Origin: Candidatus Eiseniibacteriota bacterium | GTDB taxonomy: Bacteria; Eisenbacteria; RBG-16-71-46; JABDJR01 | Direction: 5' to 3' | DNA: 64,000 bases | NCBI GenBank assembly: GCA_963783375.1 | Contig: CAWANH010000028.1 | Location: 576,001-640,000, forward strand | In this document: one piece after another, positions 917-60,445 of the stretch | How the letters are laid out: each line of letters starts with the position of its first letter | How positions within the stretch are numbered: position 1 is the stretch's first letter | Position numbers and translations under genes: made by a program | The notes under the pieces: generated by a model | The model's database searches: none | Told to the model about the DNA's origin: nothing | What the model saw: only the letters and a program-made list of their open reading frames with translations

Positions 917-945
917 TTGACACGGGCCTTCGGCCGGCGCATAGT
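917..945 (+). promoter_or_regulatory. sigma70-type promoter TTGACA-17bp-CATAGT for the glucan uptake operon
   Basis: Perfect -35 at 917-922 and a -10-like hexamer at 940-945, about 100 bp upstream of the ATG at 1043. Confidence 0.65.
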
Positions 946-965
946 TTGCACGGACACCGAACAAA
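945..965. promoter_or_regulatory. Putative ROK repressor operator 1 (TTTGCACGG-ACA-CCGAACAAA)
   Basis: 21-bp imperfect palindrome overlapping -10/+1; related copies at 14722 and 23399. Confidence 0.7.
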
Positions 966-1042
966 GGTCCGATCCACCTTGCGGCTTCACGACTTCCGGC
1001 CCTGTGGCCACAGATCGAGCCGACGCCATTCGGAGGCAGGGA

Positions 1043-2454: not shown

Positions 2455-3708
2455 ATGAAGAAACAGATCACCGGGAAGCAGGGCATCAGGCACGCCGCCG
2501 CTCAACGGCCGCGCCCGCTGGCCGATTCCATCCTGAGGCTCATCTGGCGCCAGCGCCGGATCTCCCGCGCCGAGATCGCCCGCCGCAAGCGCCTCTCCCG
2601 CTCCACCGTCTCGGAGATCGTGGGGACCCTGCTCCCCACCGGCCTCGTCGATGAGATAGGGGCCGGCCCCTCCGGAGGCGGACGGCCGCCCATCGTGCTC
2701 GAGTTCCAGGACGACGCCTGCGTCATCCTCGGGGTGGAGATGGGGGCGGCTCACGTGATGGCCGTCCTCACCGATCTTCGCGGGCGGGTGCTGGAGTGCA
2801 AGGAGCGACCCCATCCGGTTCGGAGCGACCCCGAGGGAACGCGGGCGCTCATCGTCGAGCTCTGCGATGCCTGCCTGAGCGCGCGGCCGGGCACGGCCGG
2901 CCGGCTGGTGGGAATCGGGATCGCGGCGCCGAGCCCGGTCGACCCCGGCCGTCCCGACCACCTCTCCGAGATCGTGCTCCCCGACTGGCATGGTGAGAGC
3001 GGATTCACCGAACTCCTGGCCCGGTACGGGGTTCCGATCCTGATGGACAACGACGCCAACCTGGGCGCCCTGGCCGAGGGCTGGTGGGGGGCGGGAAGCG
3101 GGGCGGACGACTTCGCCTACGTCAAGATCGCCACCGGCGTCGGCTCCGGCCACGTCATCGGGGGCCGGATCTACCGGGGGGCCACCGGGGTGGCCGGCGA
3201 GATCGGGCACATGGCCATCGATCCCCACGGCGGACCCTGCATCTGCGGCCTCCGGGGATGTCTGGCCACCCTGGTCGGCGCCCCCGCCCTGGTGGCGCGT
3301 GCCCGCTCGCTGCTCGCCGAATACCCGGAGAGCATGCTTGCCGGCACCGGGGTCACCCTCGACACCATCGTGGCCACGGCCCTCAGCGGCGATCCGCTGG
3401 CGCTCCGATTGGTGCAGGAAACCGCGGAGTACCTCGGGATCGCGGTGGCCGGCCTCCTCAACCTCATGAACCCGTCCATGGTGATCTTCGGGGGAGAAGT
3501 GGCGAGGCTGGGGGAGCTCCTCCTGGAGCCCCTCCGCGAGACCATCCGCCGGCGCACCCTGGTCAGCTCGGTCGCCGCCGCCGAGGTGCGCATGAGCGCG
3601 CTCGGCCAGCAGGCCATCGCCATCGGCGCCGCCACCCTGGTTCTCGATGCGGCGCTGGCCGACCCGGGCCTCTTCCCGACCGCGGTCCCCCGCCGGGAGG
3701 CCGGATGA
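2455..3708 (+). CDS. ROK-family transcriptional repressor (XylR/NagC-like)
   Basis: N-terminal HTH 'ISRAEIARRKRLSRSTVSEIV', GGRPP, 'DNDANLGALAE', 'GEIGH...CICGLRGCL' zinc motif. Confidence 0.92.
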   Translation: MKKQITGKQGIRHAAAQRPRPLADSILRLIWRQRRISRAEIARRKRLSRSTVSEIVGTLLPTGLVDEIGAGPSGGGRPPIVLEFQDDACVILGVEMGAAHVMAVLTDLRGRVLECKERPHPVRSDPEGTRALIVELCDACLSARPGTAGRLVGIGIAAPSPVDPGRPDHLSEIVLPDWHGESGFTELLARYGVPILMDNDANLGALAEGWWGAGSGADDFAYVKIATGVGSGHVIGGRIYRGATGVAGEIGHMAIDPHGGPCICGLRGCLATLVGAPALVARARSLLAEYPESMLAGTGVTLDTIVATALSGDPLALRLVQETAEYLGIAVAGLLNLMNPSMVIFGGEVARLGELLLEPLRETIRRRTLVSSVAAAEVRMSALGQQAIAIGAATLVLDAALADPGLFPTAVPRREAG

Positions 3709-4532
3709 GACCCCGGTTCCTACCCCGGTACTTCCGCGTCGAGATGGTGGTGGTGCTCCTCGCCTTCGCCGCCGGAGGCGCGAGCTGTGGGGAGAAGTCC
3801 GGCGGGTGGACCCTGATGTGGGAGGATGAGTTCGACGGTCCCGCGGGCCAGCCCCCGGATTCCTCGGCCTGGCGATACGACGTGGGCACGGACTGGGGCA
3901 ACGACCAGCTCGAGTACGATACCGCCCGGCCCGAGAACGTGTCGCTCGACGGCGACGGGCACCTGGCCATCGTCGCCCGCAAGGAACCCTACAACGGCGC
4001 CGACTACACCTCCGGGCGCATCAACACCTCGGGGTTCTTCGCCCAGGCGGAAGGGCGATTCGAGGCCCGGATCCGCCTCCCGCGGGGCCGGGGGCTCTGG
4101 CCCGCCTTCTGGCTCCTGGGAAATGACATCGGGACCGTCGGCTGGCCGGAGTGCGGCGAGATCGACATCATGGAGTATCGCGGGCAGGAGCCGGCGATCG
4201 TCCACGGAAGTCTCCACGGCCCCGGCTACTCCGGCGGGAGCGCCCTGACCTCCCGTTACACCCTGAGCGGCGAGACCTTCGACGCCGATTTCCACGTGTT
4301 CACGATCCAGTGGGAGCGGGACCGCATCAGCTGGTACGTGGACGGCGTGATCTACAAGGTCGTGGTCCCCAAGAACGTGCCGTCCGGGGGAAGCTGGGTG
4401 TTCGACCACCCCTTCTTCATCATCCTGGATCTCGCGGTCGGGGGGAACTTCGTGGGCCCCCCCGACGCCACCACCGTCTTCCCCCAGACCATGCTGGTCG
4501 ACTGGGTCCGGGTCTACCGGAGCGAGTCATGA
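3705..4532 (+). CDS. GH16 endo-beta-1,3-glucanase (laminarinase), probable lipoprotein
   Basis: 'LWPAFWLLG' and catalytic 'EIDIME'; 'WEDEFDG'; signal peptide ending 'GASC'; ATGA overlap with the ROK stop. Confidence 0.9.
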   Translation: MRPRFLPRYFRVEMVVVLLAFAAGGASCGEKSGGWTLMWEDEFDGPAGQPPDSSAWRYDVGTDWGNDQLEYDTARPENVSLDGDGHLAIVARKEPYNGADYTSGRINTSGFFAQAEGRFEARIRLPRGRGLWPAFWLLGNDIGTVGWPECGEIDIMEYRGQEPAIVHGSLHGPGYSGGSALTSRYTLSGETFDADFHVFTIQWERDRISWYVDGVIYKVVVPKNVPSGGSWVFDHPFFIILDLAVGGNFVGPPDATTVFPQTMLVDWVRVYRSES

Positions 4533-6202
4533 GCCGGCGCGCGCGAATCCCCGGAGTCGCGCGCATGGCCGTCATCCTTTCGGCCCTGGCCCTGTCCGCG
4601 TGCGTTCGCGACGTTCCTCGGGCGCCGGAGGGCGTGCTCGTCGTTTCCCAGGAGCAGCAGGCCTCCTGGGTCCGGAACTTCAACCCCCTCACCACCGCCA
4701 CCGCCGCCCGCTGGCCCACCCTGGCCGGGATCTACGAGCCGCTCCTCGTCTTCGACAGCGTCCGATCCGAGTACGTCCCTTGGTTGGCGGTGAAGACCGC
4801 GTGGCGGGACGGCAACACGGTGCTCCGGGTGACCACCCGGAACGGGGTGCGGTGGTCGGACGGCCAACCCTTCACCGCAAGGGATGTGGCCTTCACCTTC
4901 GATCTCCTCCGGCGGTTCCCGGCCCTGGATCGCCGCGGGGTGTGGGGGTTCATGGACGCGGTCGACGCCCCGAACGACAGCACCGTGGACTTCCGCTTCC
5001 AGCGGGTGTTCATCCCGGGCTTCGACGAGATCGCCGCTCAGCAGATCGTCCCCGAGCACGCCTGGAAAGACGTGGCCGACCCGGTCTCCTTCGCCAATGA
5101 GAACCCGGTGGCTACCGGCCCCTTCACCGAGGTCCGCGTCTTCCGGAACCAGGTCTACGAGCTGGGACGGAACCCCCACTACTGGAAGCCCGGCCTACCG
5201 AAGGTCGAAGCCCTCCGATTCCCCGCCTATCCCTCCAACGACCGCGCCAACCTCGCGCTGGTTTTCGACGAGGTGGACTGGGCGGGAAACTTCATCCCGG
5301 CGGTGGATCGCGTGTTCGTCGGACGCGATCCCGCGAACCACCACTACTGGTTCCCCCTCACCGGGAGCACGATCTTCCTCTACGCCAACACCACCCGCCA
5401 CCCCTTCGACGACGCGCGGGTGCGGAAGGCGCTCAGCATGGCCATCGATCGCGATCTCCTGGTGGACGTGGCCCTCTACCGCTATTCCCGTCCCGCCGAC
5501 GCCACCGGCCTGAGCGACGCCTACGGCTCGTGGCGGGACTCCACCGCGGTGACCGAGGGCGATTGGGTCCACCACGATGTCGCCCGCGCCAACGCCCTGC
5601 TCGACGAGGCCGGCTACCCCCTGGGAGCCGACGGCATCCGGCGACTTCCCGACGGATCGCCGTGGCGATACGACGTCCTCACCGTATCGGGCTGGTCCGA
5701 TTGGGTGCGGGCGTCCCAGGTGATCGCCCGGGGGCTCGGCGACGTCGGGATCGAGGCCTCGGTCAAGACCTACGACTTCAGCGCCTGGTTCCAGCGGGTC
5801 CAGGAGGGAGACTTCGATCTCAGCCTGGGTTGGTCCTTCGAGGGCCCCACCCCCTACCAGTTCTATCGGTGGCTGATGTCGTCGGAGACGGTGAAGCCCC
5901 AGGGGGAGGCCTCGATGGGGAACTGGCACCGGTACGGGAGCGCCGCCGCGGACACCGCCCTGGCTGCGTTCGAGCGCGAGGCCGACCCGGCCGGCCAGCG
6001 CCGCCTGGGGGACAAGCTCCAGCGGATCTTCGTGGACCAGGCCCCGGCCATCCCCCTCTATCCGAACCCCTCCTGGGCGGAGTACAACACGAGCCGGTTC
6101 GAGGGTTTCCCGTCGGAGTCGAATCCCTACGCGGATCCCTCGCCCAACAAGTTCGACCGCGGGGAGACCCTCCTCGTGCTGACGACCCTCACCCCCAGAT
6201 AG
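4529..6202 (+). CDS. ABC transporter substrate-binding lipoprotein, family 5 (oligosaccharide-binding Opp/Dpp type)
   Basis: Lipobox 'LALSA-C'; 'NFNPL', 'WSDGQPFTARDVAFTF', 'PVATGPF', 'GWSDW' as in cello/laminari-oligosaccharide SBPs. Confidence 0.9.
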   Translation: MSRRARIPGVARMAVILSALALSACVRDVPRAPEGVLVVSQEQQASWVRNFNPLTTATAARWPTLAGIYEPLLVFDSVRSEYVPWLAVKTAWRDGNTVLRVTTRNGVRWSDGQPFTARDVAFTFDLLRRFPALDRRGVWGFMDAVDAPNDSTVDFRFQRVFIPGFDEIAAQQIVPEHAWKDVADPVSFANENPVATGPFTEVRVFRNQVYELGRNPHYWKPGLPKVEALRFPAYPSNDRANLALVFDEVDWAGNFIPAVDRVFVGRDPANHHYWFPLTGSTIFLYANTTRHPFDDARVRKALSMAIDRDLLVDVALYRYSRPADATGLSDAYGSWRDSTAVTEGDWVHHDVARANALLDEAGYPLGADGIRRLPDGSPWRYDVLTVSGWSDWVRASQVIARGLGDVGIEASVKTYDFSAWFQRVQEGDFDLSLGWSFEGPTPYQFYRWLMSSETVKPQGEASMGNWHRYGSAAADTALAAFEREADPAGQRRLGDKLQRIFVDQAPAIPLYPNPSWAEYNTSRFEGFPSESNPYADPSPNKFDRGETLLVLTTLTPR

Positions 6203-6211: not shown

Positions 6212-7195
6212 ATGCGCTACATCCTGCGTCGACTCGGCTTCTATCTCCTGGCCGCCTGGGCCGCGGTGACCCTCAACTTCTTCCTGCCCCGGCTCATGCC
6301 CGGCGACCCGGCCACCGCGCTCTTCGCCCGGTTTCGGGGCCGCATGAGCCCGGAGGCCCTCGAGGCCCTCCGCCAGACCTTCGGACTCACCCGGGCCCCG
6401 CTCCTCGAGCAGTACGCCACCTACCTGGCCCACGTGTTCCGCGGCGACTTCGGCGTCTCGGTGGCGTACTTCCCTTCCCCGGTCTCCGACGTGATCGGGA
6501 CGGGGCTCGTCTGGACCCTCTTCCTGGCCGGGACCGCGGTGCTGATCAGCTTCTGCATCGGCACCCTGCTCGGGGTGGTGTCGGCCTGGTGGCGCCACGG
6601 CTGGCTCGACGCCTGGCTTCCCACCAGCCTGGCCTTCCTGGGCGCCTTCCCCTACTTCTGGCTGGCCATGGTGGCGCTCTATGTTCTCGGGTTCACCCTG
6701 GGCTGGTTTCCGCTGGGCCACGCCTACGGGGACGATCTCACCCCCGCCTTCTCCGCCGTCTTCATCGCCGATGTCGTCCGCCACGCCGCCCTCCCGGTGG
6801 CCACGGTGGTGCTGGCCACCCTTGCCGGGTGGCTCCTCTCCATGCGAAACACCATGATCGCGGTCCTGGGATCGGACTACGTGAACCTGGCCCGGGCCAA
6901 GGGGCTTCGGCCGGCGCGGGTGGTCCTCCGCTATTCGGCCCGGAACGCTCTCCTCCCCAGCGTGACCGGCTTCGGCATGGCCCTGGGATTCGTCCTGGGC
7001 GGTTCGCTCCTGACCGAGATCGTCTTCTCCTACCCCGGGGAGGGCTACCTCCTGGTCCAGGCGGTCCGGAACCAGGACTATCCGCTCATGCAGGGGATCT
7101 TCCTGTTCATCACCCTCGCCGTGCTCGGCGCGAACTGGCTGGTGGACCTCGTCTACCTCTGGCTCGACCCGCGCACCCGGGACTCGGCGTCATGA
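6212..7195 (+). CDS. ABC transporter permease (OppB/DppB-like)
   Basis: 'NFFLPRLMPGDP', EAA-like 'DYVNLARAKGL', 'EIVFSYPG'; multiple TM segments. Confidence 0.92.
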   Translation: MRYILRRLGFYLLAAWAAVTLNFFLPRLMPGDPATALFARFRGRMSPEALEALRQTFGLTRAPLLEQYATYLAHVFRGDFGVSVAYFPSPVSDVIGTGLVWTLFLAGTAVLISFCIGTLLGVVSAWWRHGWLDAWLPTSLAFLGAFPYFWLAMVALYVLGFTLGWFPLGHAYGDDLTPAFSAVFIADVVRHAALPVATVVLATLAGWLLSMRNTMIAVLGSDYVNLARAKGLRPARVVLRYSARNALLPSVTGFGMALGFVLGGSLLTEIVFSYPGEGYLLVQAVRNQDYPLMQGIFLFITLAVLGANWLVDLVYLWLDPRTRDSAS

Positions 7196-8130
7196 GCGGG
7201 GCGGCTTCCTCCCGGGCCTCCGGCTTCGCGGTCTGGAGGGACGCGGTCCTCCGCGATCGCAAGGCCACCGTGGGGGCGGTCATCGTCGGCGTGTTCCTCC
7301 TGATCGGCGTGGTAGGGCCGTGGGTGGTCGGTGATCCCAACGCCCTGGTGGGCATCCCCCTCCAACCGCCTTCGGTCCAGCACTGGCTGGGAACCACCGG
7401 CCAGGGCCAGGACGTCCTGGCCCAGCTGGTGGTCGGGACCCGAACCTCCCTCGCCGTCGGGTTCGGGGTCGGTCTGACCGTGGTGCTGGTGGGGGCCCTG
7501 GTGGGGGTCACCGCCGGCTATCTCGGCGGTCGCGCCGACGGCCTCCTCTCCCTCCTCTTCAACGTCTTTCTGGTCATCCCCGGACTCCCCCTGGCCATCG
7601 TGATCGCGGCCTACCTGCCGTCCGGTCCGCTCACCCTGGGGTTCGTGCTGGTGGTCACGGGATGGGCCTGGAACGCCCGCGTGCTCCGCGCCCAGACTCT
7701 GGCCCAGAGACGGCGCGACTTCGTGGCCGCGGCGGTGGTGGCCGGGGAGACCAACTTCCGCATCGTCACCCGTGAGATCCTCCCCACCATGACCTCGCTC
7801 CTGGTGGCGCAGGTGATCGGCAGCACGGTCTACGCGATCGGAGCCCAGGTGGGGCTCGAGTTCCTGGGGCTGGGGGACGTCTCCGCCGTGACCTGGGGCA
7901 CCAACCTCTACTGGGCCCAGAACGACTCCGCGCTCCTCACCGGGGCGTGGTGGACCTTCGCTCCCACCGGCCTCGCGGTGGCCCTGGTGGGGTTCGGGCT
8001 GACCATGCTCAACTTCGGCTTCGACGAGATCACCAACCCCCGGCTCCAGATGGAACGGGCGTGGCGCGCCTACCTGGCGCGCCGCGGCCGGAAGCCCACC
8101 CGCTCGACTCCGGTGGTGGACCATGGCTGA
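7192..8130 (+). CDS. ABC transporter permease (OppC/DppC-like)
   Basis: 'HWLGTTGQGQDV', 'LEFLGLG', 'WWTFAPTG'; ATGA overlap with the upstream permease. Confidence 0.9.
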   Translation: MSGAASSRASGFAVWRDAVLRDRKATVGAVIVGVFLLIGVVGPWVVGDPNALVGIPLQPPSVQHWLGTTGQGQDVLAQLVVGTRTSLAVGFGVGLTVVLVGALVGVTAGYLGGRADGLLSLLFNVFLVIPGLPLAIVIAAYLPSGPLTLGFVLVVTGWAWNARVLRAQTLAQRRRDFVAAAVVAGETNFRIVTREILPTMTSLLVAQVIGSTVYAIGAQVGLEFLGLGDVSAVTWGTNLYWAQNDSALLTGAWWTFAPTGLAVALVGFGLTMLNFGFDEITNPRLQMERAWRAYLARRGRKPTRSTPVVDHG

Positions 8131-9082
8131 TCCGCTGCTTTCGATCCGGGACTTCTCCGTCGACTACATCACCGACGCCGGACCGGTGCGCGCGGTGGAC
8201 CGGGTGTCGCTGGAGGTGGGGCGCGGGGAGATCCTCGGGATCGCCGGGGAGTCGGGGAGCGGCAAGTCGACCCTGGCCCAGGCGCTGCTCCGCATCCTGC
8301 CCCCGCCTGCGGTCATCTCCGGCGGGGAGGTGCGGTTCGATGGGCGGGACGTCCTGACCCTCACCGAGAGCGAACTCAGGGAACTGCGCTGGAAACGGAT
8401 CTCCATGGTGTTCCAGAGCGCCATGGATTCCCTCAACCCCGTCATCACCGTGGGCGAGCAGATCGAGGACACCCTGTTCGCCCACGGGGTCACCTCACAC
8501 CGCGAGGCCCGGGACCGGGCGGAGACGCTCCTCGAGATGGTGGGGATTCCCGGCGACCGCCTAGGGTCCTACGCGCACCAGCTCTCGGGGGGTATGCGGC
8601 AGCGGGTGGGAATCGCCATCGCCCTGGCCCTCGAACCCGACCTGGTCATCCTGGACGAGCCGACCACCGCCCTCGACGTGATCGTGGAGCGGGAGATCCT
8701 CCAGCGGATCCGCACCCTGCAACGGGAGCTGGGCTTCGCGGTGCTCTTCATCACCCACGATCTGGGGCGCATGCTGCAGTTCTCGAACCGGGTGGCGGTC
8801 TTCTACGCCGCCCGGCTGGTGGAAACCGGCCCGGCCGCGGCGCTCACCCGGACTCCGCGGCATCCCTACACCCAGGGACTCCTCCGGGCGTTCCCCTCGG
8901 CGCACGGGGCGGCCCGGGAGCTGGCCAGCATCCCCGGCTCGCCTCCGAGCCTCCTGGACCCGCCTCCGGGCTGCCGGTTCCACCCCCGCTGTCCGTTGGC
9001 GGTGGACCGCTGCCGCGTCGAGGAGCCGGAGCTCCGGCCGCTCGGCGCGGACCAGTCCGCCGCCTGTCACCTGGCCGAATAG
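8123..9082 (+). CDS. ABC transporter ATP-binding subunit (OppD-like)
   Basis: Walker A GESGSGKS, LSGGMRQR, Walker B ILDEPT, C-terminal 'GCRFHPRCP...C...ACH'. Confidence 0.95.
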   Translation: MADPLLSIRDFSVDYITDAGPVRAVDRVSLEVGRGEILGIAGESGSGKSTLAQALLRILPPPAVISGGEVRFDGRDVLTLTESELRELRWKRISMVFQSAMDSLNPVITVGEQIEDTLFAHGVTSHREARDRAETLLEMVGIPGDRLGSYAHQLSGGMRQRVGIAIALALEPDLVILDEPTTALDVIVEREILQRIRTLQRELGFAVLFITHDLGRMLQFSNRVAVFYAARLVETGPAAALTRTPRHPYTQGLLRAFPSAHGAARELASIPGSPPSLLDPPPGCRFHPRCPLAVDRCRVEEPELRPLGADQSAACHLAE

Positions 9083-9100: not shown

Positions 9101-12100
9101 CTACATGGCGAAGCGCAGGTAGGTGCGAACCTCCCACTCGTTTCCGTTCGGTCCCGGGGCGTTCGGCTCGCAGACCGAGGCCCCGGTGGCGTCGGGCACC
9201 ATGGCCGGGCAATAGCGGGGGGAATACCGATCGAGCGACCGCCAGGTGCCGCGCACCCCCAGGCTGGTCTGGGGAAAGCCGAACCAGCGCGCGGGGCCCA
9301 GGGTTCGGGACACGTCCCCCATCAACTGCACGGGATAGGTGAGGTTGAAATCGCGATGGTAGTCGTAGGGACCCCAGTCGTTGATCTTGAGCGCGGAGGC
9401 GAAGACCATGGACCCCAGGGCCAGGCGGGCGTCGCCGCCCCACCGGTGGATGAGCCGGGGGGAGTCGCCGTTCGGCTCGCCGGTGCCCCCGTAGACATGG
9501 GCCACCAGGCGCCGGTCGGCCGAAAGCCGGGACACCACGCGGAGGTGCGCTTCCCACATCTTCCGGAGCGGGGTGCCCGCGGGGAAGGCGAAGGTCGTGC
9601 GCCCGTCCTCGAAGATTCCGATGGCCGCGTCCTGGGTGGTCTTGAAGTCCCGGTAGACGAGATCCAGGCTGGCGGCCATGGGCGCATCCTCTCGGACGTC
9701 GTTGTCCCACTGCCACATCCAGGTGGCGGGGGTGGGATCGTAGGAGAGCATCAGCTCCGCCCCCACCATCTCCCGGTTGGCGCGAACCGCGAAGGGATCC
9801 TGGAGAATGTTCCGGGGCCGGCCCGGGGAAGGGACGCCGGCCGGGACCGGGCCCACCAGGGGCTTCTGCCAGAGGAAATTCGGGCCGATCTGGAAGTTCC
9901 CCTGGTTGACCGCCAGGCCGGTGATGAGGTTCGTCTGGTTCCCGGAGCCGGTGTCGGTGAGCATCCAGCCGGTGTAGTTCTGGACCGCGGTGGGCCCGCC
10001 GTCGGCCACCAGCCCCATGTAGGCGGCCTGCCCGTACCAGTGCCAGCGACCGCTCTCGTAGGTCAGCTTGCCCTTGGCCCCGAAGGTGTCGGAGTCGCGG
10101 ACGTGGTCCTGGAGCAGCCGGTACCCGTTCCCGGACCGCTCGGCGATCTGGAAACCCTGGCCAACCTTGGTGGCGCCGCCCCGGATACCGCCGACCTGGA
10201 GCCCCCACGGCCCGTGTCCGGCGGCCAGCGCCAGGGTGGTGCGCCGGGTCCGCGGGGTGGGAACGGCGAAGGAGCTGGTCACCGCGGACTGGCTGGCGAA
10301 CTCGTCCTCGAAGAGCCCGGTGGCGGTCACCGGCCCGAAGGCCCGGGTGTACTTCACGATCGCCGCCGGGTTCGCGCCCCACCAGAGCTGCGGTCCGTAG
10401 GCGAACTTCGCTCCGCTGAAGGTCTTCTTCCCGGTCAACTCGAAGCCCACCGGCGCCACGCCGTTGTAGATGTCGAGGTTGTCCCCGTAGAAGGCGTCCC
10501 GGTAGATACCGAAGAAATCCCCTTCGTACCCCCAGTGGGTGTGTCCGGTGCGATAGAAGCCGTCCAGGACGAACCAGCGGTCGTCCCAGCTCACCGAGGA
10601 ACGGTACACCTTCACCCGCTCGATCCCCTGGAGGTCGAAGCTCCCGTCGGGACCGTCCACCGTCCGGATCCGACCCCGGTTCTCGTAGAAGATCTCGTCG
10701 ATGGGGTTGGTGGGGACGTTTCCCAGAACGTTGAGAGACAGGTTCCCGGTCACCGTGGGCGCCGGGTGCGCCTCGAAGTCGGCGAAGAAGGACTCCTTGT
10801 GGTCGAAGCCCCGGAACGCCGGATAGCCGCCTCCGGGAACCGCGGTCTTGGGGGTGCTCACGTGGCTCCCCCCGGTGCTGTAGGTCTCGAACTCGAGGCG
10901 GAGTCCGCTCAGGCGGACCCGATCGGTGGCCTGGGCCAGGAGAGCGGCGCGGTCGCCGCGGGCCTCGAGCACCGCCGCCTCGGGTTGGATGGCCGCGAAG
11001 TGGCTGCGGATAGCCTGGAGGTCCGTCCCCGCCCCGTAGGGGGCCAGCCGGAAAGCGTCGCGGAGGGCATAGTAGGCGGCCCGGGGATAGAGCTCGAACA
11101 GCCCGCGGCTGTCCGGCGGCCCCTTGGCGCAGATCCCCCACCACTCCTCGTTCATGTTGTTGTCGCCGGGGACGAAGTCCTCGACGTATCCCCCGTTCGG
11201 CCACGAGGCGTTGGTGTCGTGGATGTCGAGCCGGCTGTCCTGGCCGAACTTCCACCACCCGTCGCTCCACTGGAAGATGAACCCGCCGATGGCGTTTCCC
11301 ACCCGGCCCTTGCCGTCGGACTGCTCGTAGATCTCCTCCCACTGGCCGAGGAGGTAGCGCGCCTGCATCCGCTGGTCCTCGCGCATCTCCTTCTGGTTGA
11401 AGGCGTCCGACCCGAACTCGGTGAACATGACCGGGATCCCCAGCTTGTCCTTGACCACCTGGAAGAGATCGCGGGCGGAGATCCCCCGGTAGACGTTGGT
11501 GCCCAGGACGTCGAGGTGCGGGCACTCCTGGGCGATGACGTCGATGTACTGGACGTCGCCGTTGGCGATGGCCACCGGGCGGTCCGGGTCCTCCGCCTTC
11601 ACCACGTCGATGATGTCGCCGAAGAGGGAGTAGAGCGCGTGGGCGCGGCCCAGGTTCGCCTCGCCCTCGGGGAAGGCCTCCGGTTCGAAGCTGGTCCAGG
11701 TGAGGCCGTAGTTGTTCTCATTCCCCAGGAGCCACATCAATACCCCGGGAACCCCGCGGAACTGCTCGACCAGGTTCGCCACGTCGGCGGTGATCGCGGT
11801 CCGGATCGCCGGATCGGCGTAGTTGACGTTCGGGATCCACACCCCGTTCAGGGTGTACCCGTAGCGGCCGCAGGGGTGGTTGATGACGGTGTAGATGCCG
11901 TAGCGCTCGTAGATGTAGCGGACCCAGCGGGGGGGAATCCCCACGTACTGCCGGATGGCGTTCACCCCCATGTTCTGGAGCAGCGGCATCTCCCGGGCCA
12001 GCGCCTCCTCGATCACGTCGTCGGGCTGCTGCCAGAGGCTGTAGAGATAGTTCTCGCCGATGGGGACGTAGTCCCAGTTCATCCCGTAGACCATGAAATC

Positions 12101-12274
12101 CCGCCCGCCCACCTGGAGCCGGGTACCCGCGTCGTCGGAGACCACGCGCACGGCGGACGGGGCGGCCGCGGCGGCCTCCTGCCCCCGGGCCGCCGGGGCG
12201 CCGAGAGCCAGGGCGGCGAGCACCGCCGCGAAGGCGAGGACGGGATGGAGGGGGACGGGGCGAATCGATCTCAC
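9101..12274 (-). CDS. Exported clan GH-A (GH2-like TIM-barrel) glycosidase fused to a probable C-terminal outer-membrane beta-barrel
   Basis: GTG start at 12274 with RBS AAGGAGG, overlapping the GH1 stop; signal peptide; 'LLGNENN' acid/base and 'MFTEFG' nucleophile motifs; C-terminal ~600 aa of amphipathic beta-strands ending 'EWEVRTYLRFAM'. Confidence 0.75.
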   Translation of the reverse strand: MRSIRPVPLHPVLAFAAVLAALALGAPAARGQEAAAAAPSAVRVVSDDAGTRLQVGGRDFMVYGMNWDYVPIGENYLYSLWQQPDDVIEEALAREMPLLQNMGVNAIRQYVGIPPRWVRYIYERYGIYTVINHPCGRYGYTLNGVWIPNVNYADPAIRTAITADVANLVEQFRGVPGVLMWLLGNENNYGLTWTSFEPEAFPEGEANLGRAHALYSLFGDIIDVVKAEDPDRPVAIANGDVQYIDVIAQECPHLDVLGTNVYRGISARDLFQVVKDKLGIPVMFTEFGSDAFNQKEMREDQRMQARYLLGQWEEIYEQSDGKGRVGNAIGGFIFQWSDGWWKFGQDSRLDIHDTNASWPNGGYVEDFVPGDNNMNEEWWGICAKGPPDSRGLFELYPRAAYYALRDAFRLAPYGAGTDLQAIRSHFAAIQPEAAVLEARGDRAALLAQATDRVRLSGLRLEFETYSTGGSHVSTPKTAVPGGGYPAFRGFDHKESFFADFEAHPAPTVTGNLSLNVLGNVPTNPIDEIFYENRGRIRTVDGPDGSFDLQGIERVKVYRSSVSWDDRWFVLDGFYRTGHTHWGYEGDFFGIYRDAFYGDNLDIYNGVAPVGFELTGKKTFSGAKFAYGPQLWWGANPAAIVKYTRAFGPVTATGLFEDEFASQSAVTSSFAVPTPRTRRTTLALAAGHGPWGLQVGGIRGGATKVGQGFQIAERSGNGYRLLQDHVRDSDTFGAKGKLTYESGRWHWYGQAAYMGLVADGGPTAVQNYTGWMLTDTGSGNQTNLITGLAVNQGNFQIGPNFLWQKPLVGPVPAGVPSPGRPRNILQDPFAVRANREMVGAELMLSYDPTPATWMWQWDNDVREDAPMAASLDLVYRDFKTTQDAAIGIFEDGRTTFAFPAGTPLRKMWEAHLRVVSRLSADRRLVAHVYGGTGEPNGDSPRLIHRWGGDARLALGSMVFASALKINDWGPYDYHRDFNLTYPVQLMGDVSRTLGPARWFGFPQTSLGVRGTWRSLDRYSPRYCPAMVPDATGASVCEPNAPGPNGNEWEVRTYLRFAM

Positions 12275-13662
12275 GTGTGCCTCCTTGCCGCAAGCCGCGG
12301 CGCTTCGTCGTCGACCCCGTTCGCGGCCACGACGTCGCGATACCAGAATGCGCTGTCCTTGGGAATGCGTTGCCGGGTGGCGAAATCGACCCGGTACAGG
12401 CCGAACCTCTTGGTGTACCCGTGGGCCCACTCGAAGTTGTCGAGGAGGGACCAGACGAAATACCCGCGTAACGGAACCCCGTCGGCGAGGGCGCGGTGGG
12501 CCGCGTCGAGATGGCCGCGGAGATAGGCCACCCGGCGCGCGTCGGCCACCCGCCCTCCGACCGGGGGGGGGTCGGGAAGGGCCGCGCCGTTCTCGGTGAT
12601 GTAGATCGCGGGAGGGGCGTAGTCGCGCTGAATCCGGAGCAGGAGGTCGTGGAGCCCCTGGGGATGCACCTCCCATCCCATTTCCGTGAGGTCCCCCTCC
12701 GGAGCCACCGGCACCGCCACCGGCTCCCCGCCCTCGCCCGCTCTCACCACGATGCGGGTGTAGTAGTTGAGCCCCAGGAAGTCGAGGGGAACGGACACGG
12801 CGCGGAGGTCTCCCGAGTGGACGAAGGGCAGGTCGGCGCTTTCGAGGTGACCTCGGCGGATCCGGTCCCCGATCGCGTCCTCGGGGTAGCTCCCCAGAAA
12901 GAGAGGGTCCAGGTACCAGCGATTGAAGGAGCCGTCCAGCCGGCGGGCGGCCTCGATGTCGGCCGGGTTCGGGGACGCGGGCTGGACCGGGACGAGGTTC
13001 AGCACGATCCCCACCTCGGCCCCGGGCGCGCTCGTTCGCACCGCCTCCGCCGCCCAGCCGTGGGAAAGCAGGAGATGATGGGCGACCCGAAGCGCCTCGG
13101 CGGGATCGCGGTGACCGGGAGCGTGCTCGCCCTGTTCGTGACCCAGGGTCGCGATGCACCAGGGCTCGTTGTGGGTGCCCCACCGGGTGACCCGGTCGCC
13201 CAGCCGCGACGCGACCACCGCCGCGTACTCCGCGAAGGCCTCGGCGGTGTCCCGGGAGCCCCACCCTCCGCGAGCCTGGAGGGAGAGGGGAAGGTCCCAG
13301 TGGTACAGGGTGGCGAAGGGTTGAATGCCCGCCTCGAGCAGGCCGTCGACCAGGGCGTCGTAGAAGTCGAGCCCGGCCGGATTGACCGTGCCCCGCCCGT
13401 GGGGGAGGACCCGAGGCCAGGCGATGGAGAAGCGATAAGCCCCCAGACCGAGCCCTCTCATGAGCGCGATGTCGTCCCGCCAGAGGTGGTAGTGGTCGCA
13501 GGCGACGGCGGGGTTCGAACCGTCGGCGATCCGCCCGGGGATCGAAGCGAACCGGTCCCATATCGATTCGCCGCGTCCGTCTTCCCGGGCGCCGCCCTCG
13601 ATCTGCAACGCGGAGGTGGCGACGCCCCAGGTGAATCCGTCGGGGAAGGCGAGAGAGGTCAT
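12271..13662 (-). CDS. bglA: GH1 beta-glucosidase
   Basis: 'FPDGFTWGVATSALQIEG', 'YRFSIAWPR', 'THNEP', 'YITENG', 'DNFEWAHGY'; no signal peptide. Confidence 0.95.
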   Translation of the reverse strand: MTSLAFPDGFTWGVATSALQIEGGAREDGRGESIWDRFASIPGRIADGSNPAVACDHYHLWRDDIALMRGLGLGAYRFSIAWPRVLPHGRGTVNPAGLDFYDALVDGLLEAGIQPFATLYHWDLPLSLQARGGWGSRDTAEAFAEYAAVVASRLGDRVTRWGTHNEPWCIATLGHEQGEHAPGHRDPAEALRVAHHLLLSHGWAAEAVRTSAPGAEVGIVLNLVPVQPASPNPADIEAARRLDGSFNRWYLDPLFLGSYPEDAIGDRIRRGHLESADLPFVHSGDLRAVSVPLDFLGLNYYTRIVVRAGEGGEPVAVPVAPEGDLTEMGWEVHPQGLHDLLLRIQRDYAPPAIYITENGAALPDPPPVGGRVADARRVAYLRGHLDAAHRALADGVPLRGYFVWSLLDNFEWAHGYTKRFGLYRVDFATRQRIPKDSAFWYRDVVAANGVDDEAPRLAARRHT

Positions 13663-13668: not shown

Positions 13669-14694
13669 TCAGCTCCCCGGGGCGCGGACGCCCGGTGGGT
13701 ACAGATGGCAACGGACGAGTCGGCCGTCGAAGGGGCGCGGCCCGGGCTCTTCAGCGCGACAGAGGTCGTGAACTTCGGGACAACGGTGGGCGAAGGGACA
13801 GCCCCCGGAGCCGGCCGGCGCCTCGGGCCGCCGGGACGGATCCCGGGAGGGTACGGGGGCCACATCGTCCCGGCCCGCTCCGCTCACGTCGGCGATCGAG
13901 GCCAACAGGGCCCGGGTGTAGGGATGGGCGGGCGCGCTCACCACGGCCTCCCCCGGCCCATCCTCCACCACGCGGCCGCGGAAGAGAACCAGGATCCGGT
14001 CCGCCAGGTAGCGCGCGGAGGCGAGATCATGGGTGATCAGGAGGATGGCCAGACCGCGCTCGCGTTTCAGCTCGGCGAGGAGGTTCAGCACTCCCATCCG
14101 GATGGAGACGTCCAGCATCGAGGTCGGCTCGTCGGCCACCAGGAGGTCCGGTTCGACGGCCAGGGCGCGGGCGATGGCCACCCGCTGGCGCTGGCCCCCG
14201 GAAAGCTCGTAGGGGTGGCGGTCGATGAACTCCTCCGCCGGCCGGAGGCCGACGGTGTGCAGCAGTTCCATGGCCCGGGACCTGGCGTCGGCGCGGGTAG
14301 CCCGCCGGTGGCGAAGGAGCGGGCGCACCAGATGATGGGCGACGTCGTGAACCGAGTTCAGGGAGCCGAAGGGGTCCTGGAAGACCATCTGAACCCGGCC
14401 GCGATAGGCGAGGGAGGCGTGCCGGCGTTCGCGGGCCAGCACGTTGTCACCGTCCAGGAGGATCTCGCCGCCGTCCGGCGTCTCCAGACGCAACACGAGA
14501 CGGGCCACCGTGCTCTTCCCGCTCCCGGACTCCCCCACCAGGGCCACCGCCTCGCCCCGGCTGATCTGGAAGGCCACGTCCTCGGCCGCTACCACCCGGC
14601 GTTTCTTCCCAAATAGTCCACTGGAATCAAAGGACTTACAAAGGCCTCGGATCTCGAGAAGCGGTGCTTTGGGAACTCCCGTATGAGCGTCCAC
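13669..14694 (-). CDS. ABC transporter ATP-binding subunit (OppF-like)
   Basis: GESGSGKS, 'VQMVFQDPFGSLN', LSGGQRQR, 'VADEPTSMLD', C-terminal Cys cluster. Confidence 0.93.
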   Translation of the reverse strand: MDAHTGVPKAPLLEIRGLCKSFDSSGLFGKKRRVVAAEDVAFQISRGEAVALVGESGSGKSTVARLVLRLETPDGGEILLDGDNVLARERRHASLAYRGRVQMVFQDPFGSLNSVHDVAHHLVRPLLRHRRATRADARSRAMELLHTVGLRPAEEFIDRHPYELSGGQRQRVAIARALAVEPDLLVADEPTSMLDVSIRMGVLNLLAELKRERGLAILLITHDLASARYLADRILVLFRGRVVEDGPGEAVVSAPAHPYTRALLASIADVSGAGRDDVAPVPSRDPSRRPEAPAGSGGCPFAHRCPEVHDLCRAEEPGPRPFDGRLVRCHLYPPGVRAPGS

Positions 14695-14721
14695 CGGGTC
14701 TCCTAGGAAGTGAAGAAATAC

Positions 14722-14742
14722 TTTGTTTGTCTACCGAACATA
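14722..14742. promoter_or_regulatory. Putative ROK repressor operator 2 (TTTGTTTGT-CTA-CCGAACATA)
   Basis: Same 21-bp pattern as 945-965; lies just downstream of a minus-strand TTGACA promoter. Confidence 0.7.
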
Positions 14743-14768
14743 GTGTATCCTGATGGTGTGCTTGTCAA
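14740..14768 (-). promoter_or_regulatory. sigma70-type promoter for the oppF-bglA-GH/barrel operon
   Basis: TTGACA on the minus strand at 14768-14763; -10 candidates CACTAT (17-bp spacer) or TACACT (15-bp spacer). Confidence 0.6.
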
Positions 14769-14965
14769 GGATCCGCCGTGTCCGGGGGACGATTTTCGAG
14801 ACTGGATGACCGGCCGAAACCGCCGCCCTACCGGCCCGAGGAATCGGACCCAGCTCCCGGCGGCGCTCCGGACTCCCGGCGTTCGACCGCAAGCACGATG
14901 AGCAGCGACGATTTCCGATCCTGCTACCCGCGACTGGCTCGTGCCCACATCAAGGGAGGCTCGTG

Positions 14966-15613
14966 ATGCTGATGAAGAGTTGGCTACCCCGTGTTGCATG
15001 CTCCGCCGTTCTCCTGCTCCTTCTCGCCGCGCCCGCGACGAACGCCTCGGCACAGAACGTTCTCGCGAACCCCGGGTTCGAGAGCGGACTCACCGGCTGG
15101 ACCCCGTTCGGCAACGCCTATGCCGAAGCCTCGAACCCTCCGCAGTTCGTGCCGCTCAGCGGCACCGGACTCGCTTCCATGTTCGGAAATTTCTCCGGCG
15201 GCTTCAACGTGACCGGAATCTTCCAGGAGTTCGCCTGCTCGCCGGGCGACCAGTGGCAGATCTCCTCGAACGCCCGCTTCTGGAGCGGTGACCCGATGAT
15301 CGGGAGCCAGGCCGCCGGCGGGAACTGGGTCGTCCAGAAGATGGCCTTCTTCGACGCCAGCAACGCCGAAATCGGCGGGGCCGAGTCGATCATTCTCGAC
15401 GGCAGCTACACGGCCGACGTCTGGCATCCGGCCGCTCCGGTGGTCGGCGTCGCCCCCGCGGGAACCGTCAAGGTACAGGCTCTGATCCTCTACCTCCAGC
15501 CGGCCTTCGACGGCGGCGCCGCTCATGTCGACGACGTGGAGTTCGTCAACGTGACCAGCGTTCCCGTCGAGGAGACCACCTGGGGACACGTCAAGTCGCT
15601 CTACGCCCAGTAG
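14966..15613 (+). CDS. Secreted single-CBM-like protein with C-terminal 'TWGHVKSLY' motif
   Basis: RBS AGGGAGG; signal peptide ending ASA; 'NVLANPGFESGLTGW' CBM4-like start; ends 'VPVEETTWGHVKSLYAQ'. Confidence 0.75.
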   Translation: MLMKSWLPRVACSAVLLLLLAAPATNASAQNVLANPGFESGLTGWTPFGNAYAEASNPPQFVPLSGTGLASMFGNFSGGFNVTGIFQEFACSPGDQWQISSNARFWSGDPMIGSQAAGGNWVVQKMAFFDASNAEIGGAESIILDGSYTADVWHPAAPVVGVAPAGTVKVQALILYLQPAFDGGAAHVDDVEFVNVTSVPVEETTWGHVKSLYAQ

Positions 15614-15727: not shown

Positions 15728-17146
15728 ATGAAACGCCCTCTCGCCGGAATCCTCTTCGTCCTGACTCTCTTCGCGGTATCGATCTTCCCCTCGACTTCGT
15801 CCGCGGCGACCAATCTCCTGGCCAACCCCGGCTTCGAGGACGGGGGCGGCTCCTACAACGGCTGGTTCACCTTCGGGGCCGGCGTGCAGCTCTCGCTCCC
15901 GGCCGGAGACAATATCATCCATACCGGAGCCGCCGCCTCGAAGGTCTACGGGGAGTTCACCGGGTGCCCCGGTTCGCCCCAGTTCGACGTCGGGGGGTTC
16001 GGGCAGGCCTTCACCCCCACCGCGGGACAGATTTACGAACTCAGCGGATACTCCTTCGTCTCCAGCGGCGATCCCATCCCCGGCACCGATACCTGCGTCC
16101 GGAACCGCATGATCGCCAAGATCGTCTTCTTCGATGCCGCGGTCGGCGGGGCCGAGCTGTCCTCGAACGAGATCATCATCGGCGACGGCAACACCGTGAC
16201 CGATCAGTGGCACGCCTTCTCGGTTTCGGCCCCGGCTCCGGCAGGAGCGCTCCGGGTGGAGGCTCTCTTCCTCTATCTCCAGCCCGCCTGCGACGGCGGG
16301 TCTGTCTTCGTGGACGACGCCTCGTTCACCGAGAGCGCGCCGGCCTCCGTGTCCAACCTCCTGGCCAACCCGAGCTTCACCTCCGGCCTCACCGGATGGT
16401 CCATCTTCGGCAACGTCTATCCCGACAGCCGCTCCTTCGCCGTACGGACCCCCACCGGCAGCGCCAAGATGTACTCGACCTTCACCCCCGACTCCCCCTC
16501 CGGCATGTTCCAGTCCTTCGCGGCGACTCCGGGATCGGCCTGGCAGCTGTCCGCCTACGCCCTGACCACGTGCGTGGAGGACGCGATCACCGGGAGCAAC
16601 GACAACTACGTGCTGGCGAGGATCGTCTTCCGCGACTCGGGCGGGATCGAGGTCGGCTCCACCGACACGGTGGTCCTGGACAACACCGCGCCCCTCGGCA
16701 CCTGGACGAAACACACGGTCATCGCGGTCAACGCCCCGGCGGGCACCGCCACGGTGGAGCCCTATCTCCTCTTCATCTCGCCGACGCTCATGGACAAGGC
16801 GGCCTGGGTGGACGACGTCTCCTTCCAGGAGCTGGATCCCACCGGCGTCGGAGACGACCCGCGGCCGCTCGCCTTCGAGCTGCACCAGAACGCGCCGAAC
16901 CCCTTCAGCCGGTCGACCCGGGTCGCGTTCGACCTCGAGGCGGCCGACGCGGTGAATCTGGAGGTCTACGACATCGCCGGCCGCCTGGTGACCACCCTGT
17001 TCGAAGGCCGACTCTCCGCCGGACCGCATGCGGTGGCGTGGGATGGGATGACCGCGAGCGGCGCCCGGGCCGCCGCCGGCATCTATCGGTACCGGCTCCG
17101 GACCTCGGCGGGCGAGGTTTCCCGGAACATGATCCTGATCCGGTGA
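15728..17146 (+). CDS. Secreted tandem CBM-like protein with C-terminal FlgD-Ig domain
   Basis: RBS AAGGAGG; two 'NLLANP.F...GW..FG' modules; 'LHQNAPNPFSRST...VYDIAGRLV...WDG...GIYRYRL' FlgD-Ig/CTD. Confidence 0.8.
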   Translation: MKRPLAGILFVLTLFAVSIFPSTSSAATNLLANPGFEDGGGSYNGWFTFGAGVQLSLPAGDNIIHTGAAASKVYGEFTGCPGSPQFDVGGFGQAFTPTAGQIYELSGYSFVSSGDPIPGTDTCVRNRMIAKIVFFDAAVGGAELSSNEIIIGDGNTVTDQWHAFSVSAPAPAGALRVEALFLYLQPACDGGSVFVDDASFTESAPASVSNLLANPSFTSGLTGWSIFGNVYPDSRSFAVRTPTGSAKMYSTFTPDSPSGMFQSFAATPGSAWQLSAYALTTCVEDAITGSNDNYVLARIVFRDSGGIEVGSTDTVVLDNTAPLGTWTKHTVIAVNAPAGTATVEPYLLFISPTLMDKAAWVDDVSFQELDPTGVGDDPRPLAFELHQNAPNPFSRSTRVAFDLEAADAVNLEVYDIAGRLVTTLFEGRLSAGPHAVAWDGMTASGARAAAGIYRYRLRTSAGEVSRNMILIR

Positions 17147-17159: not shown

Positions 17160-18224
17160 GTGAACCGTCTTGCCCTGGTGCTTCTCGCCGCCGTCGGCCT
17201 GAGCTTGGCCGGACCGGCCGGCGGTCGGGAGCCCCTCGACGCCGCGGTTTCGAACCCGGACCCGACCTTCGACCGGGAAGCGCCGTTCACCAAACGGCCC
17301 TTCCCGGTCCAGTCCGACGCCGGCTGGATCGGAACCGGCATCGCCTACGGTCCGCACCGGGACGGCGAGTCGCCCGGAGGGGCGCAGCCCACGCGGGAAG
17401 AGCTGCGTGAGGACCTGCACCTTCTCGCCGCGCACTGGAAGCTAGTTCGCCTCTACGGCTCCACCGGCCCGGCCCGGACCATCCTCGAGGTGATCCGCGC
17501 GGACCGGCTCGACATGAAGGTGATGCTGGGGGTCTGGATCGATCCCGAGGCGCGCCGGGACACCACGGGCGCGGTGATCGAGGAGCTCCCCGAGGGCCCG
17601 GCGGCGAACCGCCGGGAGATCGAGTCGGGGGTGGCCCTGGCCTCGGAGTACCCGGACATCGTGATTGCCCTCTGCGTGGGAAACGAAACCCAGGTCTTCT
17701 GGTCGTCCCACCGGGTGGCCGCGGACCGCCTGATCGATGCCTTGCGCGAGGTACGGGCCCGGACCACGGTTCCGGTCACCACCTCCGACGACTACAACTT
17801 CTGGAACAAGCCGGAGAGCGGAGCGGTGGCCGGGGAGATCGACTTCATCACCGTGAACGGCCATCCGCTGTGGAACGGCGCCCAGATCGAGAACGCCCTG
17901 GGATGGACCCGGACGATCCTCGCCGGACTCCGGGCCGACCATCCCGGTGACGCCGTCATCCTGGGCGAGACGGGGTGGGCCACCGAACGGGACACGGTGG
18001 GAGAGCAGGCGACGCTCATGAAGGGCGAGGTCGGTGAGGACCAGCAGGCGATCTACTACCGGGCGGTGACCGCCTGGTCGGATTCGGCGCGGGTCCCGAC
18101 CTTCTTTTTCGAGGCCTTCGACGAGAACTGGAAGGGCGGCGATCGTCCGGCCGACGTCGAGAAGCACTGGGGGCTCTATCGGGCGGACCGGACCCCCAAG
18201 AAGGCGCTCGCCGCCGGGCGGTGA
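17160..18224 (+). CDS. GH17-family beta-1,3-glucanase, exported
   Basis: Signal peptide; 'IAYGPHRDG', 'VGNE', 'LGETGWAT', 'FFFEAFDENWK', 'EKHWGL'. Confidence 0.85.
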   Translation: MNRLALVLLAAVGLSLAGPAGGREPLDAAVSNPDPTFDREAPFTKRPFPVQSDAGWIGTGIAYGPHRDGESPGGAQPTREELREDLHLLAAHWKLVRLYGSTGPARTILEVIRADRLDMKVMLGVWIDPEARRDTTGAVIEELPEGPAANRREIESGVALASEYPDIVIALCVGNETQVFWSSHRVAADRLIDALREVRARTTVPVTTSDDYNFWNKPESGAVAGEIDFITVNGHPLWNGAQIENALGWTRTILAGLRADHPGDAVILGETGWATERDTVGEQATLMKGEVGEDQQAIYYRAVTAWSDSARVPTFFFEAFDENWKGGDRPADVEKHWGLYRADRTPKKALAAGR

Positions 18225-24396: not shown

Positions 24397-24400
24397 GGGG

Positions 24401-60439: not shown

Positions 60440-60445
60440 GTAGAA

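Follow-up and report, generated by a model that had tools for sequence, protein, structure and literature searches.

One of the major carbon pools of the sea is laminarin, and Gram-negative bacteria are usually assumed to take it up through SusC/SusD pairs or other TonB-dependent receptors. How do beta-1,3-glucan fragments cross the outer membrane when the locus that consumes them contains no such receptor? This question is raised by a 64,000-nucleotide stretch, hereafter the window, from a Candidatus Eiseniibacteriota bacterium (GCA_963783375.1, contig CAWANH010000028.1, positions 576,001 to 640,000). One of its genes encodes a clan GH-A glycoside hydrolase (GH) fused to a predicted outer-membrane beta-barrel. 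A sequence-only reading of the window, made without database searches, had proposed that this protein is the entry route for beta-glucan and that it replaces SusC. Here, the fusion is suggested to be a TonB-independent passive channel for beta-1,3-gluco-oligosaccharides with a periplasmic enzyme, at a probability of about 0.55. Import of beta-1,3-glucan fragments in some form is considered likely.

AlphaFold placed 24 long strands between residues 453 and 1056, both in the full-chain model (predicted local distance difference test, pLDDT, 91.7) and in a model of the barrel alone (pLDDT 92.9; predicted template modelling score, pTM, 0.87). The barrel was folded alone because the GH domain dominated the results when the full model was searched for similar folds. 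Long loops (L) alternate with turns (T) mostly of two to three residues, and the strand faces alternate between hydrophobic and polar residues, weakly so in strands 1 and 4. In covariation among 294 sequences, which is independent of AlphaFold, 45 of the 63 strand-strand pairs in the top 300 join neighbouring strands, and a pair between the first and last strands (E461-R1054) is found at rank 60. The structural matches listed for the C-terminal model are membrane beta-barrels in 50 of 50 cases, at identities of at most 12%. The sequence-only reading had described a beta-barrel of about 600 residues behind a helical linker and had proposed AlphaFold and Foldseek as a check. Both the barrel and the helix (residues 431-450) are present in the AlphaFold model, and Foldseek agrees on the barrel (template modelling score, TM, at most 0.40). 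Soluble beta-sandwich domains, the outcome which that reading had named as fatal to it, did not appear. They are barely credible against two high-confidence barrel models, the membrane-barrel matches, and the first-to-last strand covariation. No direct support for them was found; the terminal aromatic is missing here, and a Formosa candidate described below was placed in category 1 by BOMP. That the modelled outer-membrane barrel is real is regarded as very likely.

No solved barrel stands out as closely related, which does not by itself prove a new fold. The best matches are to 18-stranded barrels, namely OprD/Occ, AlgE, and Campylobacter MOMP (Z 14.5-16.4), and mostly cover about strands 2 to 18 or 19. 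AlgE gave Z 16.4 (root-mean-square deviation, rmsd, 5.6 over 283 residues), MOMP 15.4, and OccD2 15.1. Unlike the OprD, Occ, and AlgE proteins, the fusion has 24 predicted strands, an N-terminal enzyme, and inner loops that are acidic and aromatic rather than cationic; identity is 6-10%. Matches spanning the entire barrel were found with the fimbrial ushers FimD (Z 12.9) and PapC (Z 11.8). A fimbrial usher is a 24-stranded barrel with plug and chaperone-binding domains, encoded in a pilus operon. The fusion differs in that Pfam detected no usher plug or periplasmic usher domain, no pilus genes were found among the scanned neighbours, and identity is 8%. The top Foldseek rows are TonB-dependent receptors (TM about 0.34, rmsd about 15), and the best TM with any solved barrel is 0.40. 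Neither the plug domain (PF07715) nor the 22-stranded receptor barrel (PF00593) was matched by Pfam in the fusion, and neither were autotransporter families. Neither the barrel nor its enzyme-free relatives reached the cut-off of any family in Pfam or NCBIfam, and a PDB sequence search with the C-terminal half gave no match.

Conservation among the connections, compared over 45 non-redundant rows, is highest in L4, the 21-residue periplasmic turn T8, L11, L3, L7, and L8. L3 and T8 are acidic and rich in aromatic residues, which would fit a sugar-binding constriction. In AlgE, the gates are L2 and T8 (PMC4118822), and the periplasmic gate T8 is matched by the long, conserved T8 of the fusion. 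The barrel may thus be kin to 18-stranded barrels of the OprD/AlgE type, in enlarged form. The sequence-only reading had described the last strand as beta-signal-like. The strand does alternate and carries the conserved Y1052, but it ends in Met and not in the usual aromatic residue. Close relatives mostly end in L, I, or M, and enzyme-free and distant relatives end in YxYxF.

The N-terminal domain was modelled from a 132-row alignment as a TIM barrel (residues 42-428). Both catalytic Glu residues proposed from the sequence are conserved: among non-gap rows, E186 is kept in 106 of 109 and E286 in 107 of 111. Residues N136, E137, and E220 are essential in BuGH158 (PMC7157763), and their motifs align with N185-E186 and E286 of the fusion. 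The fusion enzyme shares with GH158 the N-E acid/base and TE(F/W)G nucleophile motifs, and with the GH158 (6PAL, 9ORO) and GH157 (9FZ9) endo-beta-1,3-glucanases the clan GH-A fold. The closest structure is that of LaGH157 (Z 29.2, rmsd 3.0, 314 residues), followed by GH158(Pro) (Z 27.8); all of the top ten Foldseek rows with the full model are GH157 or GH158. In a profile search of solved enzymes, only two sequences, both GH158, passed E 1e-5 (GH158 E 2e-9 versus GH2 E 9e-5). The GH2 TIM barrel family PF02836 matched at 30.5 bits against a cut-off of 21, over residues 90-307 only. The sugar-binding and immunoglobulin (Ig) domains that flank it in GH2 gave no Pfam match and have no room in the AlphaFold model. 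The C-terminal eight-stranded Ig-like domain of GH158 is not present in the model either. Where GH157 and GH158 have an accessory Ig or sandwich domain, the fusion has a helix and a membrane barrel, and catalytic-domain identity to their structures is 17-20%. The domain is a poor member of GH2, GH157, and GH158, and is probably a separate family now labelled GH2. It has the look of an intact clan GH-A enzyme, with beta-1,3-glucanase as its likeliest activity.

Beta-1,3-glucan is favoured as the substrate because GH157 and GH158 are the nearest solved enzymes, because GH16, GH17, and GH149 genes are neighbours, and because GH149 co-occurs with the fusion. The fusion was found in 21 of 41 related genomes. 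GH149 was found in all 21 of these carriers, and the other 20 genomes gave one fragment in one genome; these counts come from related genomes and are not independent. The channel and tethered enzyme could instead serve a different beta-glucan, either beta-1,6-linked or mixed-linkage or in the form of cello-oligosaccharides; an exo-acting enzyme or a transglycosylase is a further option. In favour of this are the GH2 (Z 27.3) and GH5 (Z 26.9) structures that score near GH157 and GH158, the beta-1,6-acting GH30 in 27 of 49 distant fused loci, and the absence from the fusion of the Ig domain that shapes specificity in GH158 (PMC13195107). The complete GH149 co-occurrence in the class survey and the laminarin induction of the Formosa candidate argue against it, and such a substrate or activity is considered improbable.

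On which side of the membrane does the enzyme lie? Strand 1 begins on the short-turn face of the modelled barrel, so that a periplasmic enzyme is the default, and this placement is more likely than not. The loop after strand 8 of a TIM barrel lies on its catalytic face. It is in this loop that D371 is located, and D371 forms the best covarying GH-to-barrel pair (rank 24), with R566 in the periplasmic turn T2. Acid-base combinations at the two positions carry a weight of 101 and base-acid combinations a weight of 10, the swap occurring in two sequence clusters. Contact between D371 and R566 would aim the catalytic cleft at the pore exit.

The opposite placement would be an autotransporter-like barrel that displays its own glycosidase on the surface, with the linker helix in the lumen and any channel role secondary. 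The order of signal peptide, enzyme, 20-residue helix, and C-terminal barrel is like that of autotransporters, and the Formosa candidate accounts for 0.67% of the extracellular fraction, though the receptors are found there too, at 0.20-0.22% (PMC6246565). The D371-R566 pair, in contrast, favours the periplasmic face, and the conserved inward loops would crowd a lumen that holds a helix (D593 of L3 pairs with H745 of strand 13 at rank 64). The translocator domain of type Va autotransporters has 12 strands, as against 24 here. Surface display is also at odds with the barrels that persist in glucan loci without any enzyme, and is judged unlikely.

These enzyme-free barrels came from a survey of 80 genome loci (49 of at least 20 kb), 80 metagenome loci (9 of them excluded as truncated or ambiguous), and 15 same-class loci. 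They were found in 22 of the 80 metagenome loci. They are about 590 residues long, possess their own signal peptide, and end in YxYxF where complete. In the fetched DNA, GH16 or a family-5 binding protein was present in 17 of the 22 loci, several of which are near-duplicates, and a receptor in none. Since barrels without an enzyme stand beside GH16 and ABC (ATP-binding cassette) importers, the barrel is best read as a channel and not as a mere anchor. The proposed entry route for beta-glucan is supported to the extent that a channel is the likeliest function.

A conserved lipoprotein gene (1043-2410) was overlooked by the sequence-only reading. Pfam and NCBIfam gave no family for it, and no SusD fold was detected. 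It is present in 20 of the 21 fusion-carrying genomes; the other 20 genomes gave no full match and one weak partial match. Its N-terminal domain was found in 39 of the 49 genome loci of at least 20 kb. By reading of these long loci, most of the misses are genes cut at the edge of the fetched DNA, and two loci (L033 and L041) lack the cluster. The predicted complex of barrel and lipoprotein scored 0.36 versus 0.00 for the best control, which is in the weak band; runs share at least 47% of contacts and the pLDDT of the partner is at least 85. In calibration, 116 of 157 solved complexes reached the mark for complexes, as did 2 of 215 mismatched pairs. A gated active importer could be built from the same parts: the lipoprotein would serve as a lid in the manner of SusD, and a gate of T8 and loops would be opened by TonB or by some other partner in the periplasm. 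The co-occurrence of the lipoprotein with the fusion, the weak complex prediction, the TonB genes in the genome, the large barrel, and the receptors in the top Foldseek rows are consistent with it. The lack of a plug domain is not, nor is the absence of the lipoprotein from most distant loci, and the receptor matches reflect barrel size only. Gated import is regarded as quite unlikely.

The direction of transport can be inferred from the locus. The sequence-only reading had reported an inner-membrane ABC importer and no TonB-dependent receptor; a family-5 binding protein, two permeases, and ATPases were found, and there is no receptor in the window. Of 102 fetched loci, 31 contain the palindrome CTTTGTT-N9-AACAAAG, in most cases just 5' of the fusion or the lipoprotein. 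The window contains three sites at up to three mismatches (0.29 expected), ahead of three transcription units, and the ROK repressor presumably binds them. A repressor with operator-like sites, an importer-type binding protein, and the absence of a glucan synthase among the genes scanned in the window all point to import. Export would require that the barrel releases self-made beta-glucan like AlgE or PgaA, that the GH domain edits or clears the polymer, and that GH149 is synthetic. The GH149 reaction is reversible (PMC5827456), and AlgE, the best structural match, also has the gating turn T8. Besides the missing synthase and the repressor, an importer-type ABC system or a transporter of the major facilitator superfamily (MFS) in most loci and the laminarin induction of the Formosa candidate argue against export, which is highly improbable.

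No alternative importer is apparent nearby, since receptors are rare in related loci and the genome has no SusD match and its three receptors lie outside the window. SusD (PF07980) was not matched in the 97%-complete genome. The three receptors are plug-bearing, and our own receptor profile added a fourth candidate and one weak short match. Among the 15 same-class loci, an ABC binding protein was found in 14 and a TonB-dependent receptor in none. The 49 long genome loci contain GH16 (46), an MFS transporter (39), an ABC binding protein (5), and a TonB-dependent receptor (6); MFS and ABC systems never occur together in them. The locus of Bacteroides finegoldii consists of a regulator, the fusion, the lipoprotein, GH16, and GH3, without SusC/D. 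The sequence-only reading had proposed to check whether homologous loci lack susCD; one related fusion locus (L088) has SusC/D directly upstream. The claim that the barrel replaces SusC was too strong, given L088, a genome without SusD, and Formosa, which keeps SusC/D loci. The barrel would be an alternative route and not a SusC substitute.

Formosa also provides expression data. Its laminarin polysaccharide utilization locus (PUL) 2 opens with FORMB_24670 (labelled GH2), followed by a hypothetical protein, GH16, PKD, GH149, GH17, GH30, MFS, and GH17, and no receptor or SusD is listed for it in the available part of the report (PMC6246565). This gene order matches Bacteroidota loci such as L097, and by gene order only FORMB_24670 is probably a candidate ortholog of the fusion. 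It makes up 1.19% of the membrane proteome on laminarin versus 0.006% on glucose, a 196-fold rise (PMC6246565, Table S3), and the two laminarin receptors make up 0.46% and 0.45%. Its membrane level is 6.5 times its soluble level of 0.18%, while the receptors are enriched 14- to 17-fold. It was also detected in bloom metaproteomes. BOMP assigned it category 1 only, and the PKD proteins likewise (all PMC6246565). The same PUL encodes an MFS-GH17 fusion, FORMB_24740, which the authors had not seen described elsewhere (PMC6246565). It resembles the present fusion in joining transporter and glycosidase in one chain within a laminarin locus; it differs in that its transporter is an inner-membrane permease and not an outer-membrane barrel. 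Muricauda laminarin loci carry a "GH2" upstream of GH16 and GH149 (PMC13188888), which is probably this gene. The locus type of Formosa PUL 2 has been called variant B, with no mention of the barrel in the part available (PMC6298971), and laminarin loci without susCD are expressed, the importer not being named in the part available (PMC10811738). In the literature covered, with most subscription papers outside its scope, no description of the barrel or the fusion was found, and the available parts of PMC13440311, PMC11345257, and PMC12175321 contain nothing on this barrel.

The following sequence of steps is proposed. The GH16 lipoprotein and secreted proteins would cut and bind laminarin-type glucan outside the cell, and the partner lipoprotein could hold the glycan at the pore mouth. 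Oligomers would then cross by diffusion, in a lumen constricted by L3, L7, and L8, which are conserved and rich in aromatic and acidic residues, and by the long periplasmic turn T8. The tethered GH-A domain would cut chains as they emerge and keep the gradient steep. The family-5 binding protein and the ABC importer would pass short oligomers to the cytoplasmic GH149 and GH1. Such a system would resemble uptake through a chitoporin or maltoporin, with an enzyme built into the pore protein, although the barrel is a member of no family tested. In Vibrio, chitooligosaccharide uptake proceeds through ChiP, the binding protein CBP, and an ABC importer (PMC10406626, PMC8449061), and there too a sugar-specific TonB-independent pore feeds a family-5 binding protein. 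ChiP is a smaller, trimeric porin without a fused enzyme, serves another substrate, and gave Z 11.9 only. The Bacteroidota SusC/SusD loci for beta-1,3-glucan, such as 1,3GUL of B. uniformis (PMC7157763), also combine an outer-membrane barrel followed by a lipoprotein, GH16, and a beta-glucosidase. Unlike SusC, the fusion has no plug, 24 strands instead of 22, and the enzyme in the same chain. Its locus has no detected SusD fold, and it is found far outside Bacteroidota.

Several points weigh against this proposal. The best barrel match, AlgE, is an exporter. The periplasmic placement of the enzyme rests on topology and one covarying pair; the remaining GH-to-barrel pairs scatter over both faces like noise, at an effective depth of about 223. 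In the model, the 20-residue helix ahead of strand 1 is long enough to traverse the lumen, as in autotransporters. GH2 and GH5 structures score only 2-3 Z units below GH157 and GH158, so that the substrate assignment comes mostly from context. The N-terminal domain of the lipoprotein was found in only 3 of the 49 distant fused loci and in none of the 22 without an enzyme. The lipoprotein is accessory, since it is missing from the other 46 and from every enzyme-free locus. At scores of 0.60 or below, the complex mark was reached by 18 of the 157 solved complexes and by both mismatches. The flanks fetched extend at most 10 kb per side, and the receptor profile is home-built from 7 seeds, which account for 5 of its 6 hits. 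The genome contains 8 TonB_C matches above cut-off, which would allow energised gating. Formosa expresses two laminarin-induced SusC/D loci besides PUL 2 (PMC6246565), and there the barrel would complement SusC.

A broader claim is tentative and somewhat doubtful: that the fusion founds a widespread type of uptake machine that needs neither TonB nor SusC/D, made of a 24-stranded porin of a new family, a periplasmic glucanase, and a non-SusD lipoprotein cap. If it is true, the glucanase draws chains of beta-1,3-glucan across by cleaving what comes out of the pore. The machine would then serve bacteria ranging from gut Bacteroides to phyla of the sea and of sediments, and may account for a real part of marine laminarin uptake. 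A family of thousands of relatives now labelled "GH2" or "glycosidase" would be a concrete importer candidate for susCD-free laminarin loci. Outer-membrane biology would gain a sugar channel of 24 strands and a fusion of enzyme and pore, and such loci would be predicted differently from genomes. Cultured carriers exist in B. finegoldii and in Formosa, where the candidate ortholog outweighs either laminarin receptor in the membrane fraction.

The fusion gene starts with GTG behind an AAGGAGG ribosome-binding site, and the start overlaps the stop codon of the GH1 gene. The signal peptide noted earlier is of the Sec type as read by eye (residues 1 to about 31), with low pLDDT, and all of the motifs that had been quoted are found in the translation. 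The best 120 of the scored relatives have 62-99% identity across at least 85% of the length. They are named "glycosidase", "GH2 TIM barrel-domain protein", or "hypothetical", much as the sequence-only reading had expected of such proteins. In total, E 0.001 is passed by 5085 of the 7997 candidates scored, though a single domain may be all that some of them match. Some listed relatives are named Eisenbacteria or Krumholzibacteriota in the source records. A species-genome scan gave at least 612 relatives among 615 stretches, and the best 80 of these belong to Gemmatimonadota, Ignavibacteria, Bacteroidota, Myxococcales, Calditrichota, and others. No indel is listed in the fusion gene for the contigs of a near-identical population (run X1), and no RNA holder is listed for the gene. 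The coordinates of the features are collected in Table 1.

Table 1. Features of the fusion gene and its surroundings in the window (CBM, carbohydrate-binding module).
Feature	Position	Strand	Basis
Whole fusion gene, GH-A glycosidase and predicted outer-membrane barrel, 1057 aa	9101..12274	-	ORF, AlphaFold
Sec-type signal peptide, residues 1 to ~31, without lipobox Cys	12182..12274	-	Read by eye; low pLDDT
Clan GH-A (beta/alpha)8 domain, residues 42-428	10991..12151	-	Pfam PF02836 30.5 bits; Z 29.2 LaGH157, 27.8 GH158(Pro)
E186, predicted acid/base, N185 before it	11717..11719	-	Alignment with GH158 motifs
E286, predicted nucleophile	11417..11419	-	Alignment with GH158 motifs
Linker helix, residues 431-450, absent from enzyme-free barrels	10925..10984	-	AlphaFold
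Predicted 24-stranded beta-barrel, residues 453-1057; conserved L3, L4, L7, L8, L11, and 21-residue turn T8	9104..10918	-	Models, covariation
Second-best operator-like site of the genome, a palindrome upstream of the lipoprotein-ROK-GH16-ABC operon	944..966	.	
Partner lipoprotein, lipobox LG|C, 455 aa; Ig-like and CBM-like look-alikes	1043..2410	+	
ROK-family repressor	2455..3708	+	
GH16 with lipobox, likely endo-beta-1,3-glucanase	3705..4532	+	
Family-5 solute-binding protein; among solved structures closest to the Vibrio chitooligosaccharide-binding protein, E 8e-85	4529..6202	+	
ABC permease 1	6212..7195	+	
ABC permease 2	7192..8130	+	
ABC ATPase 1, convergent with the fusion gene	8123..9082	+	
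GH1 beta-glucosidase, immediately upstream of the fusion	12271..13662	-	TIGR03356 611 bits vs cut-off 478.5
ABC ATPase 2, opens the operon of the fusion	13669..14694	-	
Best operator-like site of the genome, a palindrome in the divergent region upstream of the operon of the fusion	14721..14743	.	
Secreted 216-aa protein, CBM-like by eye, without Pfam family	14963..15613	+	
Secreted protein, two CBM-like repeats (by eye) and C-terminal FlgD-Ig domain	15728..17146	+	
GH17, beta-1,3-glucanase family	17160..18224	+	
GH149 beta-1,3-glucan phosphorylase, one-base frameshift near 18605	18288..21745	+	
Secreted protein, GH16-like EIDVE motif (by eye) and FlgD-Ig tail	21752..23359	-	
Weaker operator-like site upstream of gene 21752-23359; fifth-best of the genome	23398..23420	.	

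Variants of the fusion were also seen. P0127 has, by eye, two tandem GH domains ahead of the barrel, P0253 has an N-terminal CBM4_9, and in locus L192 (12297-14123) a separate GH-A gene adjoins the fusion. Two few-contig genomes (G004 and G021) have both the fusion and GH149 frameshifted many times, probably through long-read assembly errors. An Atlas search yielded clusters without a name, and DUF6029 as a lead at 0.93. The sequence that carries the SusC/D-free beta-glucan locus of B. finegoldii (L021, NZ_OY725931.1) is recorded as a plasmid; with valS, rpsA, and glutamine synthetase genes, it looks chromosomal.

The C-terminal domain of the lipoprotein also occurs elsewhere. It is inserted in Gemmatimonadota MFS transporters of loci L031 (14888-17005), L032, L034, L035, L037, and L038, and the same insertion was found in L042, L043, L045, L047, and L068. 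It is possibly a sugar-binding module inside an inner-membrane permease. In three distant loci, a different lipoprotein lies right behind the barrel gene (L142, 11854-12525; L166, 7911-8612; L131, 2866-4566), and one of them has a weak CBM11 match. These are perhaps analogous partners. Frames of about 1110-1135 residues in L058 (1340-4744), L030, L036, and L052 match MFS and GH3, and are probable MFS-GH3 fusions, like the MFS-GH17 fusion of Formosa.

The one-base frameshift in GH149 near 18605 is probably an assembly error, since the extra base is present in contigs from three runs of three studies. The family-5 binding protein (4529-6202) has an apparent lipobox, ALSA|C, which is unusual for a diderm periplasmic binding protein. 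Three secreted proteins (15728-17146, 21752-23359, and 23575-28953) end in FlgD-Ig domains, and the first two also match TIGR04183, hinting at an export route in this lineage that is like the type IX secretion system. The EIDVE motif in 21752-23359 is like the GH16 catalytic motif, although Pfam gave no GH16 match there; a divergent glucanase is possible. Within 57617-64000, an open reading frame that by eye resembles an integron integrase is followed by a stretch of lower GC (0.60-0.64), possibly a cassette array. An ArsR-like regulator and an Acr3-like permease, both recognized by eye at 52839-54825, could form an arsenic-resistance operon.

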